Shown: piece after piece, positions 28,956 to 61,107 of the stretch
How the letters are laid out: each line of letters starts with the position of its first letter
How positions within the stretch are numbered: the first letter of the stretch is position 1
Assembly: GCA_951406725.2 (NCBI GenBank)
Contig: OX597837.1
Coordinates: forward strand, 28,830,001 to 28,894,000
Source: Octopus vulgaris
Taxonomy: Eukaryota
Length of the DNA stretch: 64,000 nt
Direction of reading: 5' to 3'
Translations under genes and position numbers: made by a program
The notes under the pieces: model-generated
Told to the model about the DNA's origin: nothing
The model's input: the letters and a program-made list of their open reading frames with translations, nothing else
The model's database searches: none

Positions 28956-29385
28956 ATGGCCGAAAATCGAATCAAAGGCAGAAGTATAAATGCAGATAAA
29001 GAATCGTCTGCGGATGTACATGTCCTGAATGGTAAATTATTAGGATCAGAGGGAAAAACCTCCTTCATAATCTATCTTCTTTCAGCACTAGCCCAGTTAT
29101 CGGTTTTGTGTGTCGGATATGATTTGGGGGCGTCTTCAGGGGCTGTACTTATCGTTAAAGATGCCATGCACCTTTCAACCATTTGGCAACAGTTAATTAT
29201 GGCTGGACCTTTACCTGTGGCTGTCATTATTTCAATTATTGCCACCAAAATCAGCGACAAATTTGGCCGAAGAAAAACAATTATGGCGAGCAGTGTTTCG
29301 TATATTATTGGATCTATTATTTCCGGGAGTGCAGTCAACCAATACATGCTTCTATGTGGACGATTTATTGTGGGTTTCGGATTCG
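28956..29385 (+). CDS. SLC2A13/HMIT-like sugar porter first coding exon, variant A (TM1-TM4)
   Basis: GYDLGASSGA, DKFGRRK, GRFIVGFGFG; donor G|GTAAG at 29386; 430 nt, phase 1. Confidence 0.88.
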
Positions 29386-29811
29386 GTAAGCAGAAAAGAA
29401 TTTGATTATTCTTGTTCTTAATTTATCACCAAGTCTTTATACACTTGCTGTGTTTGTTTTTTATCATTGTAGAATTTTGTTTTTCATTTGTTTCATTGTA
29501 GAACTTCGTGTATATTGTGAACCATTGCATGAATTCCATGAACAAAATATATGTGTGACAGTGCGAAAACTAACGTCTTTCTGAATGCCCGTCTATTTTT
29601 AAGCGTTCCAAACGTGACCATCCTGTTTGTTTTTTTTAACCCAGATATTTCACATGTCTCCTCCAGCTATCTTTTGTTTTTTGCTTGATTTTTTGTTTGG
29701 GCTTTTTTAGAACGAATCAAGGTAATGCTATAAGTAACTGAAAAATTGGAGGATGATAAGGTAAAAGGTGTCCGGTGATAGTTTTGCTGGCTCAGGTTAA
29801 TCGCCGATTGG

Positions 29812-30179
29812 AAGCACTCCGTCGGTTACGACGATGAGGGTTCTGCTTGATCCGATCAACGGAACAGCCTGCTCGTGAAATTAACGTGTAAGTGGCTGAG
29901 CACTCCACAGACACGTGTACCCTTAACGTAGTTCTCGGGGATATTCAGCGTGACACAGAGAGTGACAAGGCCGGCCCTTTGAAATACAGGTACAACAGAA
30001 ACAGGAAGAAAGAGCGAGAGAAATTTGTGGTGAAAGAGTACAGCAGGGATCACCACCATCCCCTGCCGGAGCCTCGTGGAGCTTTAGGTGTTTTCGCTCA
30101 ATAAACACTCACAACGCCCGGTCTGGGAATCAAAACCGCGATCCTATGACCGCGAGTCCGCTGCCCTAACCACTGGGCC
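29812..30179 (-). mobile_element. tRNA-derived SINE
   Basis: Reverse complement of the 33459 family. Confidence 0.88.
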
Positions 30180-30825
30180 GATTAATTATTGAAATAAAAC
30201 AAAATTTGATTTTCTTTTTTGTCCTAATTTTAATTTCAATTTCCCTTACATTCATTTGTTAACCAGACCCCCAACCACAAAAGTGTATGGTTACTGATGT
30301 CGCCCTTCATTGAACAGACTTCAAAGGCGTTCCAGCAATGGCTATCATATATGTTTCTCTATCAAAGACAAGATTTTACAATGTGTCCATCCTTTATTTA
30401 AAACATTAGATTGCAATTTGATCGAGCCTGGCTGCTATTTCTTGTAGTTCGATTGACCACCTAGTGGCTTCTGCAGTTGGCTTTCAGATAAACCAGCTAC
30501 TTAGAGATAAACCAGCTTTATCTGAAAACAGCTGGGAAATACTGTCTATGCGATCGCAGCAAAAACGACTCCACTACGCCCGCCCACCCATACAAACACA
30601 CACATACACACGCGCACACATAAAACACGCTTCTTTTATTATTACGTGGTAATTGCTGGCTTTGTGCTAAAATTCGAAACCATTTTTACATGGCAAAATA
30701 CGTAACAGATTTTTATCTCCCAGGTCTACTCTTGAATACGAAAATAATTTAGGGTTTCCATAACTTTCATTTGTTCCTTTGTACACTGACAGTAAAAAAG
30801 GCATTTATTCTGCTCCTGATCGAAA

Positions 30826-31219
30826 ATGACCGAAAATCCAAACAAATATAGATTTGAAAAATTGGACAAAGTGTTTCCCAAAAAAGAAAAAAGCTTCTTG
30901 AATCTCTATATTCTAACGATCATGGCACACATGTCGATTTTGTCATTTGGATGGGATTTGGGCGCTTCGTCAGGCGCTATACTTCTCGTCAAAGACGCCA
31001 TGCATCTTCCAGCCACATGGCAACAGCTGTTTATTGCTATGCCCAGTGTAGGGGCTGCCATCTTGTCCATCATTGGTTCTGAGATTAGTAACATATTTGG
31101 CCGAAGAAAAACTAGCATGGCGAGTAGTGTTTCGTTTTTTGCCGGCGCTGTTATTTCGGGAAGTGCAATGAACAAGTATATGCTTCTGTTTGGACGATTG
31201 CTGGTGGGTTTCGGATGTG
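30826..31219 (+). CDS. SLC2A13/HMIT-like first coding exon, variant B
   Basis: GWDLGASSGA, FGRRK, GRLLVGFGCG; donor G|GTAAG at 31220; 394 nt, phase 1. Confidence 0.88.
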
Positions 31220-31553
31220 GTAAGAGGAAACGAAATTATTATTCTTGGTACCATTTTGGAATTGGGTTCTCGCACTACTTATTATTTTTTTTATTTACTT
31301 TCTTTTCGTAATTTTTTTTTCTATATGCATTGACAATTATATTTTGGACCACTAATGGAACTTCATGCGCCGGTTACGGGTGCGTATCTTCTGTCTTTTC
31401 TTTCACTTGTATCTGTCCTCAGACTACGGCCATGCCTTGAAGAATTTCTAGTCGCATGACTCCACCCAGTACTTACTTTTTTAAAGCCTGGTACTTATTC
31501 TACCAATCTGTTTTGCCGAATCGTTAACTTACGGGGACGTAAACACACTAATA

Positions 31554-31783
31554 CCTATTTCTTTACTACCCACAAGGGGCTAAACACAGAGAGGACAAAC
31601 AAGGAGATTAAGTCGATTGATTATATCGACCCCAGTGCGTAACTGGTACTTATTTAATCGACCCCGAAAGGATGAAAGGCAGAGTCGACCTCGGCGGAAT
31701 TTGAACTCAGAACGAAACGGCAGACTAAATACGGCTATGCATTTCGCCCGGCGTGCTAACGTTTCTGCCAGCTCGCCGCCTTA
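31554..31783 (-). mobile_element. SINE (ggcggcgagctggcagaaacgttagc head family) nested in another SINE remnant
   Basis: Related copies at ~14140, ~27370 and 38663. Confidence 0.8.
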
Positions 31784-58304: not shown

Positions 58305-58640
58305 TATATAAAATTAGAAAAAAAACACCTTTTATCAATTCAAAATGAACAATTAAATTACACCATCTAGAAAATTACATATAATAGAAATATTAAAATT
58401 AAAATAACAATGAAATGTCAGTGATTAAGTAAATTGCAAAAATGATAAAACATATATAATTGGTAGAATAACGACACGTGTTTCGTGGCTATATTTAAGA
58501 AATGATTATAGTAGTAGTAAAATCACTTCGATATAAATATAGTCACTCATTTCTATTATATGTAATTTTCTAGATGGTTTAATTTAATTGTTCATTTTAA
58601 ATTGATAAAAGGTGGGTATTTTTCTAATTTTTTATAGATA
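58305..58640. repeat. Foldback with ~85-bp inverted arms around a truncated hammerhead-like core
   Basis: 58305-58392 is the reverse complement of ~58548-58636; duplicated at ~63611-63945. Confidence 0.8.
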
Positions 58641-59140
58641 TATTATATTGTGTGAAATTTGATTTAGTATTTCTAAATTGAATTTTTTTCCCTGTAAGTT
58701 TGGATTTTATTCCCTTAAATAATAATTATATATATATATATCACGTGATCACGTGACCGACCAGACCATCAGATGTTGTTACACATCGCTGGTCACAATG
58801 CGTTCGCATTGTTTTAGCCTTCGAATGACGCCACCCCGCTGGCTAAGCGAGCAGGCCATATATATATATATATATATATATATATATATATATATATATA
58901 TATATATATATACCTTATTCGGATTATATAGACTGAAAGAATTAGAGGAGAGAAGGTACGGTGTTACTAGTCCCGACAGCTGTTTCTGGGGGGTCAGAGT
59001 TACTTCATAATATTGGCAGATGTAGTTCACCAAATTGTAGGAAAAAAACTCGGCCTCCTTCTTTAGAGTGGACTGATAAGTGTCTAATGTATCAGATCAT
59101 TATGCAGGGAAATGTTAAGACAGACTGGGCGTAGTAGAAG

Positions 59141-59525
59141 GTGGAGGCGCAATGGCCCAGTGGTTAGGGCAGCGGACTCGCGGTCGTAGGATCGCGGTTT
59201 CGATTCCCAGACCGGGCGTTGTGAGTGTTTATTGAGCGAAAACACCTAAAGCTCCGCGAGGCTCCGGCAGGGGATGGTGGTGATCCCTGCTGTACTCTTT
59301 CACCATAACTTTCTCTCACTTTTACTTCCTGTTTCTGTTGTAGCTGTATTTCAAGGGGCCGGCCTTGTCATTCTCTGTGTCACGCTGAATATCCCCGAGA
59401 ACTACGTTAAGGGTACACGTGTTTGTGGAGTGCTCAGCCACTTACACGTTAATTTCACGAGCAGGCTGTTCCGTTGATTCGGATCAACAGGAACCCTCGT
59501 CGTCGTAACCGACGGAGTGCTTCCC
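59141..59525 (+). mobile_element. Full-length tRNA-derived SINE
   Basis: Family match; TSD agtagaaggt. Confidence 0.92.
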
Positions 59526-59897
59526 AGTAGAAGGTAAGCAAGTAGTTTTGCGGGAGGACGTGGGTGTCTCAATGGGAGTGTGATGAGTGTTGGTGCAAGG
59601 AAAGCCTCCCACTTTGCTTCCACTACACCTGTTCTACCTTTAAATTTGCAATACACTGTGTTATTAAAGCATCTCAAAAATGCAATTACGCAGTTTATAA
59701 AACTATTTTACAATCGAACAACTCACTTGAAACGTATAATTTTTAACCGTGCATTTGTAAATTACGACCAATTAAATAACTCGCCTACTCTTCTTTCTCT
59801 AGTCTTCTTTGAAATATTGTATCGAATTTGAGTCTACATAATTTTCACTACTACATTTTGATTTCGAGCAGTAAACACGTTATAATTTCGATCGGAT

Positions 59898-60291
59898 ATG
59901 GCCAAAAATCGAAGCAAAGGCACGTTTAATGTAAAGCAGGACAAGGAATCACCTGAGAACGGAAAAACGTTAAGACTGTATTTTCTGGTGGTCCTAGTAG
60001 TAATTTCGGTTTTCTCAATGGGATGTGATTTTGGTGCAACATCAAGCGCTATACTTCTCGTCAAAGAAACCATGCAACTTTCAGCGAGTTGGCAAGGGTT
60101 GATTACAGCTGGACCCTTACCCGTGGCTGCAATTATTAGCGTTATTGGATCTCATATTAGCAACAAAATTGGCCGAAAAAAAACAGTTATGGCGAGTAGT
60201 ATTTCCTATTTACTTGGAGCTATTATTTCAGCAAGTGCCGTCAACCAATATATGCTGCTGTTCGGGCGATGTCTGGTTGGTTTTGGATTCG
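59898..60291 (+). CDS. SLC2A13/HMIT-like first coding exon, variant G
   Basis: GCDFGATSSA, NKIGRKK, GRCLVGFGFG; donor G|GTAAG at 60292; 394 nt, phase 1. Confidence 0.88.
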
Positions 60292-61107
60292 GTAAGAGGA
60301 AACAATATTTTTATTCTTGATCTTAATTTGCCATCAGATTTTCCTGCCAATATTTGTTCTTCTAGAACTTTCCGTACGCATTTGATTATAGTCTGAAATA
60401 CGTGCACCGAGTCACAAAACATGCGTCTTTCCATCACTCTTCCTAGTATTTCCAAGCATTCAAACCAAGGTTCCAGTGTTGGGAAAAGAATCAACTACTG
60501 TGTTCCTTCGAGCTGGCCATATTCTCTCTCTCTCTCTCTCTCTCTCTCTCTCTCTCTCTCTCTCTCTCTCTCTCTCTCTCTCTCTCTCTCTCTCTATCTA
60601 TCTATCTATCTATCTATCTATCTATTTATCTCTCTCTCTCTTTACTTGTTTCAGTCATTTGACTGCGGCCATGCTGGAGCACCGCAAATCAACCCCAGGA
60701 CTTATTCTTTGTATGCCTAGTACTTATTCTATCGGTCTCTTTCGCCGAACCGTTCAGTTATGCTGACGTAAACACACCACCATCGGTTGAAACGAGTAAA
60801 AGAGTAAATACATTCATACATACATACATATATACATACATGCATACATACATACATACATACATACATACATACATACATACATTCATACATACATGCA
60901 TACATACATGCATACATACATACATACATACATACATACATACATACATGCATGCATATATGCATGCATACATACATAGATACATATATACATACATACA
61001 TACATACATACATACATACATACATACATACATTCATACATACATACATATATACATACAAACATGCATACATACATGCATACATACATACATACATACA
61101 TACATAC

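Follow-up and report, generated by a model that had tools for sequence, protein, structure and literature searches.

A Tandem Array of Eight First Exons ahead of a Single Set of Constant Exons in an HMIT-like Gene of Octopus vulgaris

Introduction

A stretch of 64,000 nucleotides (nt) from Octopus vulgaris (GenBank assembly GCA_951406725.2, contig OX597837.1, positions 28,830,001 to 28,894,000 of the forward strand; hereafter the window) contains a row of homologous exons that resemble the beginning of the transporter HMIT (SLC2A13). Are these exons alternative beginnings of one gene, or are they separate genes, tolerated duplicates or remains of an assembly error? A preliminary description of the window had proposed that one gene uses them as exchangeable first exons and produces a family of chimeric major facilitator superfamily (MFS) transporters. 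We examined the downstream DNA for 200 kb past the window, 264 kb in all with the window; coordinates past 64000 continue the window numbering beyond its end, and 28,830,000 is added to obtain positions on the contig (C24).

Organization of the First-Exon Array

The analysis revealed one gene of about 109 kb, with eight intact first exons (A to H) and a single shared body. All eight first exons are tandem and homologous, lie on the same strand and in the same phase, and carry their own start codon and their own donor. The five in the window start with ATG, keep an open frame, have a length of 3n+1 and end in G/GTAAG; their starts, their lengths of 430, 394, 385, 397 and 394 nt and their phase-1 donors are exactly as first described, and two relics reported at 38562 and 41395 were recovered by a DNA profile of the exons (nhmmer; E, expectation value). 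All five are real, while the array holds eight rather than the five counted initially, with F, G and H lying past the window. The features, with lengths in nt and in amino acids (aa) and with TM standing for transmembrane helix, are as follows.

28956..29385, forward strand: variable first exon A; 430 nt, 143 aa; N-tail, TM1-TM3 and first half of TM4; phase-1 donor GTAAGC
30826..31219, forward strand: variable first exon B; 394 nt, 131 aa; donor GTAAGA
38562..38654, forward strand: relic 1; about 30 first-exon codons, then a stop; nhmmer match 38527-38642, E 1e-10
39395..39779, forward strand: variable first exon C; 385 nt, 128 aa; donor GTAAGA
41395..42433, forward strand: relic 2; degenerate first exon carrying a deletion and a stop; two nhmmer matches, E 2e-38 and 4e-19
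50852..51248, forward strand: variable first exon D; 397 nt, 132 aa; donor GTAAGA
59898..60291, forward strand: variable first exon E; 394 nt, 131 aa; donor GTAAGA
60292..64000, forward strand: intron running off the window end; the gene continues beyond
64901-65294, forward strand, outside the window: variable first exon F; 96% DNA identity to E
73061-73490, forward strand, outside the window: variable first exon G; 90% DNA identity to A
96415-96838, forward strand, outside the window: variable first exon H; the most divergent, resembling the Argonauta first exon

Pairwise DNA identity among the first exons ranges from 51 to 96% (divergence 4-49%), and H shares 40-47% aa identity with the others. 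Relic 2 is split by a repeat-like insertion at about 41575-42318, with profile matches at 41337-41575 and 42319-42433, and the remainder of relic 1 past its stop was not found with the same profile, which also gave a weak, possible third trace of a first exon at 37975-38041 (E 0.005). No further first exon upstream of the window appeared in the genome-wide searches. When the genome was scanned with Pfam, 9 out of 600 candidates received a score and the majority of the exons escaped, and a search with exon E for longer proteins gave only one plant protein among 1702 candidates, which served as a probe.

The Shared Gene Body and the Joined Products

The constant set comprises eight exons, all bounded by AG/GT, which encode the second half of TM4 to TM12.

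122499-122658, 125534-125745, 126874-126985 and 129267-129430, forward strand: constant exons 1-4
130750-130861, 132565-132809, 134050-134202 and 138013-138179 (with the stop), forward strand: constant exons 5-8

Each constant exon occurs once in the 264 kb, all of them at 122.5-138.2 kb, as found by tblastn with two full-length proteins and by word-size-7 blastn with each of the eight exons. The observation that no TM5-TM12 sequence stands between the first exons was thereby extended to the 264 kb, where no constant-exon copy lies between them and the single match was a 19-nt chance match on the other strand. Genome-wide, the constant part gave 22 matches among 46 candidates, the strong ones all being exons of this locus and the weaker ones other genes on contigs C3, C4, C9 and C14. 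The corresponding search with exon A gave 11 matches among 17 candidates, namely the eight exons of the locus and one each on C3, C4 and C9, where three other HMIT-like genes have one first exon and their own body each. Separate exon sets for each first exon, which would have spoken for separate genes, are not what was found: the locus has a single set, which is also the only close one in the genome. C14 also holds an intronless sugar-porter ORF (open reading frame) of 464 aa at 21543134-21544420, reverse strand (L027).

For all eight first exons the join to the constant set keeps the frame and yields proteins of 569-584 aa (A 584, B 572, C 569, D 573 and E 572 aa). The product of A is identical to O. 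sinensis isoform X1 (P0005) at 584/584 residues, that of B matches isoform X3 (P0007) at 571/572, and that of H is identical to P0002, while the N-terminally truncated isoform X4 (P0004) matches E at 475/475 and both D and F at 474/475. The automated O. sinensis annotation (XP_029650494.1, XP_029650495.2, XP_036368582.1, XP_036368583.1, XP_036368584.1 and XP_029650496.1, named "proton myo-inositol cotransporter" X1-X5) thus represents A as X1, H as X2, B as X3, a D/E/F-type as X4 and an A/G-type as X5, with three full-length and two truncated (X4, X5) N-termini. A protein record of Octopus vulgaris matches the locus exactly, the O. vulgaris record CAI9740196.1 carries the H N-terminus only, and an A-type exon is present in a further record (P0008). 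The O. sinensis isoforms are automated gene models of the same gene, which give no full-length isoform for C, G or the separate D, E and F exons and do not present the exons as an array. Present octopus annotations therefore undercount the isoforms, and the automated isoform lists already imply some of the array.

RNA-like Contigs around Exons A and B

From 21 listed sequencing runs, sorted into RNA-like and DNA-like by guess, none of the RNA-like ones being recorded as RNA, 13 RNA-like runs hold 0.21-0.44 of the sequence words of the A and B stretch, of which the exons make up 0.36. Three RNA-like runs from three studies and one DNA-like run were aligned to 28800-31500. In the RNA-like runs, cover is zero or near zero just past the A donor, except at a short interspersed element (SINE), and the DNA-like run X18 reads straight through the A and B donors. 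Of the contigs displayed, six reach to within 10 nt of a donor, and five of them stop aligning at donor+2 (29387 and 31221), because the intron and the constant exon both start with GT; the sixth (run X8, exon B) ends 5 nt short of the donor. Exit at the A donor was observed in 3/3 RNA-like runs and exit at the B donor in runs X1 and X4. Contig depth is 23-56 for A and 2-4.5 for B, values which were not used for expression ranking.

Logan contigs are built with words of k=31 and overlap by 30 nt. In such a graph a contig ends 30 nt into sequence that is common with another incoming path, and its overhang past the donor therefore depends on which other exons enter the same acceptor. The exon ends predict overhangs of 21 nt for A with C, D, E or F, 26 nt for A with H, and 27 nt for B with any other. 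The observed overhangs were 21, 26 and 26 nt for A (runs X1, X4 and X8) and 27 and 27 nt for B (runs X1 and X4), a match in 5/5. Private downstream exons would have let the A and B contigs run on, and their ending soon after the donor argues that there are none. From these lengths we infer that A and B converge on one shared acceptor, as was anticipated for a site beyond 64 kb, and by implication H and one of C, D, E and F reach it too. Use restricted to the most 3′ exon, which the preliminary description had held to be damaging to its proposal, is not what was found: A and B are both spliced in RNA-like contigs and both occur as annotated isoforms.

The same contigs bear on where transcripts begin. 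RNA-like contigs are collinear with the genome for 100 nt (run X4) and 51 nt (run X8) above the A ATG and for 62 nt (run X1) above the B ATG, with no loose 5′ part; the contigs cannot map transcription starts, and this cover fits first exons. Mutually exclusive internal exons behind one shared upstream non-coding exon and promoter, with a Dscam-like splicing choice, would predict such a loose part, and the copies moreover share about 60-370 nt of upstream DNA. Even though the starts are unmapped and two accessions for the A protein suggest variants of the untranslated region, we regard that arrangement as very improbable.

An error of assembly, or a series of truncated pseudogenes, each separate and none ever joined to a body, is harder still to credit. 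The region is repeat-rich and local tandem duplications lie nearby, as an artefact would have it, but the copies differ by 4-49% and show purifying selection, a DNA-like run spans A and B, the RNA-like contigs break exactly at the donors, and a second assembly, that of O. sinensis, is annotated with the same isoforms.

Selection and Copy History

In the membrane core, the proportion of non-synonymous differences (pN) is below that of synonymous ones (pS) at p<0.05 in 22 of the 28 exon pairs, these tests being uncorrected and non-independent. Six pairs depart from this, namely B-C, C-D, D-E and the three pairings within the group of C, E and F, so that the proposed comparison of exons speaks for selection in most pairs and for none within the C, E and F group. 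B and D sit on long branches, their frames are open, and pN<pS holds against most of their partners. In a neutral simulation of 2000 trials, A or B stays intact in 0.6-1% at d=0.3. E and F differ over the whole exon at 14 non-synonymous and 2 synonymous sites; positive selection between them was considered and rejected, the TM core not being significant (p 0.74).

The duplicated unit is small, consisting of the exon, about 60-370 nt of upstream DNA and some intron. A and G are about 90-96% identical in core (13/337 nt differ) and flanks (10/98), while their N-tails (28956-29048 against L007:9061-9153) differ at 30/93 nt, an excess with p 3e-4 against the flanks. At three positions of A, the letter in runs X1 and X4 is of the G type. 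Together with the raised tail difference, these letters speak for gene conversion or for rapid evolution of the tail; the rates of synonymous and of non-synonymous change are alike elevated in the tail, which suggests a conversion boundary there. The array appears to evolve by birth and death.

Protein Architecture

The joined proteins match Pfam Sugar_tr (PF00083) with E of 1.5e-90 and 9e-89. An alignment-based structure model of A with the constant part reached a predicted local distance difference test (pLDDT) of 90.4, with STP6, GLUT3 and XylE as best Foldseek matches, and was used in place of a single-sequence model with a pLDDT of 35.9. Its helices at 37-71, 75-103, 105-124 and 129-157 were assigned by us to TM1-TM4, and the exon junction at residues 143/144 is predicted to fall inside the helix 129-157, in mid-TM4. 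The variable part would hence comprise the N-tail and TM1 to mid-TM4, about 3.5 of 12 helices; the N-tail and TM1-TM3 stand as first described, and in the model the exon stops halfway through TM4 rather than at its end. The most variable columns are located in the N-tail, the first half of TM1 and the TM1-TM2 loop, and many first-exon changes are conservative hydrophobic swaps.

An Asp in TM1 and an Arg in TM4 are invariant in all eight exons and align to D22 and R102 of GlcP, which excerpts of PMC5770559 describe as the proton site and its salt-bridge partner, the pair being necessary and not sufficient for symport. Excerpts of PMC8154325 report that sugar coordination lies mainly in the C-terminal bundle, with the N-terminal bundle supplying only one coordinating residue, and that TM1 acts as a latch against the TM7b gate. 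In the octopus gene the main sugar-binding helices are constant and the variable part carries the Asp/Arg latch and the N-tail, and isoform differences are therefore likelier in expression, gating or sorting than in substrate. The single coordinating residue of the N-terminal bundle presumably sits in TM5, which is likewise constant.

The description of the gene as HMIT/SLC2A13-like is borne out: its closest named relatives are HMITs, it has the TM1 Asp and the TM4 Arg, and it has a large cysteine-rich extracellular loop before TM10, which is a feature of HMIT (GLUT13). The sugar site is non-canonical, in that the first TM7 Gln is Ala, the first TM11 Asn is Cys and the TM5 Thr/Ile is Gln, as compared with 5/5 canonical HMITs; we take these three positions to be ones that contact the sugar in GLUTs. 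The three substitutions are largely common to the whole branch, whose proteins also bear an acidic or amide residue in TM1 where canonical HMIT has Phe. With these departures, "myo-inositol cotransporter" is a label by similarity, and H+/myo-inositol symport would be an assignment by name. The canonical octopus HMIT paralogue on C4 has its first intron at the same position and is only 43% identical in the constant part.

Ancestry across Coleoids

The branch of this gene is separate from canonical HMIT, contains cephalopod-named and Logan sequences and is probably specific to coleoids. The two full-length Logan proteins P0157 and P0305/P0158 have 95% identity over the constant part and 48% over exon 1, a pattern that suggests two first exons on a common body, the source species of the pair not being shown to be the same; P0305/P0158 matches an Acanthosepion pharaonis record at 100% over 181 aa. 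In a tree of the exons (26 rows, 114 columns), H groups with Argonauta and P0157 at 98/93. A clade of all octopod exons, a group named after a first tree had been seen, was rejected by the approximately unbiased (AU) test (p-AU 0.006). A grouping of P0305 with A-G was not rejected (p-AU 0.13), and the best tree puts P0305 beside H at 83/84. At least two first exons thus probably predate the split of octopods and decapods. A 1,448,535 bp contig of A. pharaonis holds several diverged SLC2A13-like genes of the same branch (P0165, P0166, P0168, P0314, P0322 and P0332). Several A. pharaonis records on one contig differ along their whole length and look like whole-gene duplicates.

Neighboring Elements in the Window

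Upstream of the array, the tandem uninterrupted ORFs at 2184-5687 and 14864-18280 (both forward strand), of about 1135-1170 aa and with two GAF stretches and a PDEase_I domain each, are, judged by their sequence, intronless GAF-type phosphodiesterase paralogues with long C-terminal extensions. The other elements are as follows.

363-1700, reverse strand: reverse transcriptase (RT) fragment of a long interspersed element (LINE)
19202-19907, reverse strand: mariner-type transposase fragment
22429-23307, reverse strand: second, partial Penelope-type copy with GIY-YIG
24699-27041, reverse strand: Penelope-type element with an open 781-aa RT and GIY-YIG ORF
35035-35698: 325-bp SINE-like unit in two tandem copies
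about 42800-45300 and 45900-48200, forward strand: local tandem duplication of about 3.1 kb, containing an integrase fragment, at 43738-44424 in the first copy and, frameshifted, at 46831-47516 in the second
54476-55711, reverse strand: open 412-aa ORF with no Pfam match, resembling LINE ORF1 by eye

Discussion

We consider it quite likely that the locus is a single-gene array of eight alternative first exons with one acceptor, whose isoforms differ in expression, gating, coupling or sorting. The ancestral first coding exon, with short upstream DNA, would have been duplicated in tandem repeatedly, leaving eight copies intact and at least two as relics. None of the first exons needs 5′ splicing and each has a phase-1 donor; a transcript would begin at one first exon and splice its donor to the acceptor at 122499, skipping the exons between. 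For A and B this splicing is documented by contig breaks and annotation, for H and at least one of C, D, E and F it is implied, and it would hold for the rest. The products would have the second half of TM4 to TM12 in common, their differences lying in the N-tail and TM1 to mid-TM4, with promoter-driven expression by tissue or cell type and the same or a similar substrate handled with different kinetics, gating, proton coupling or sorting. The proposal of one gene with chimeric MFS products agrees with the in-frame joins of all eight exons, the one constant set, the A and B contig breaks and the annotated isoforms.

Several points weigh against this reading. The junction was deduced from overhang lengths and not read as letters, and the transcript comparison covers A and B only, in runs whose RNA-like or DNA-like nature was guessed. 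The annotation gives isoforms X4 and X5 with truncated N-termini, and the same A protein stands under two O. sinensis accessions, which permits an upstream non-coding exon. Among C, E and F there is no purifying signal (pN about pS, dN/dS about 1-2), and C or E stays open neutrally in about 25% of trials at d=0.07, so that the young copies are not proven functional. The same layout might then be mostly regulatory or neutral, with only A, H and perhaps B mattering, C, E, F and G being tolerated duplicates drifting toward relics, and the protein differences silent; the two relics, the conservative hydrophobic swaps and the truncated isoforms would also suit it. We judge this rather unlikely, since B and D keep open frames with pN<pS against most partners on long branches, the 21-nt overhang in run X1 implies splicing of one of C, D, E and F, and another record (P0008) contains an A-type exon.

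Comparable layouts are known. Vertebrate UGT1A resembles the octopus gene in that homologous first exons, nearly equal in length and alike in frame, stand in tandem before one constant set, and in its relics and its birth and death, and the UGT1 variable exons of that unrelated protein encode the acceptor-binding part and show site-level positive selection (excerpts of PMC1885805). The analogy with UGT1A, drawn at the outset, holds for the layout and probably not for the mechanism, the swapped part not being the main substrate-binding half; unlike in UGT1A, the boundary falls within a membrane helix and leaves the main sugar-binding helices in the constant part. The Drosophila taste receptor gene Gr39a (with Gr28b and Gr23a) likewise encodes an invertebrate multi-pass membrane protein with tandem donor-only large exons and one small constant block; its exons have been gained and lost, with selection relaxed in the young ones, yet it has four or five exons covering six of seven helices (excerpts of PMC2204066), as against eight covering 3.5 of 12 in a transporter. 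The clustered alpha and gamma protocadherins and chelicerate sDscam, in which promoter choice operates, share the tandem 5′ cassettes spliced to constant exons, but are neuronal cell-surface adhesion molecules (excerpts of PMC4835542). The known cases of this layout are listed without a transporter in the available text of PMC3338513. For the octopus locus no published account was found in the literature searched, outside which lie most subscription journals and supplements, whose gene tables could list it, and the words inositol, transporter, SLC2, constant and variable are absent from PMC9068888. Promoter choice in protocadherins is stochastic.

A broader reading, which we put forward as possible though doubtful, is that of a coleoid sugar porter with swappable N-terminal helices since before the octopod/decapod split, with an altered substrate site, probably not for myo-inositol, with cell-type promoter choice, and with whole-gene expansion in the cuttlefish against first-exon expansion in Octopus. 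If this were true, promoter choice would set the proton latch, the partner helix of the outer gate and the sorting tail on a fixed site, and the products would be natural transporter chimeras separating energy coupling and gating from substrate recognition.

With this array, the variable-first-exon design would reach an MFS sugar porter and, within the literature searched, a cephalopod gene. Tuning of coupling and gating by TM1 and the latch is an open question of sugar-porter mechanism, according to excerpts of PMC8154325, and the eight naturally occurring forms of TM1-TM4a, all set on the same binding site, would offer a series on how TM1, the latch and the N-tail tune coupling, gating and trafficking. 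Within one gene branch, exon duplication and whole-gene duplication may further be contrasted as routes to paralogue diversity.

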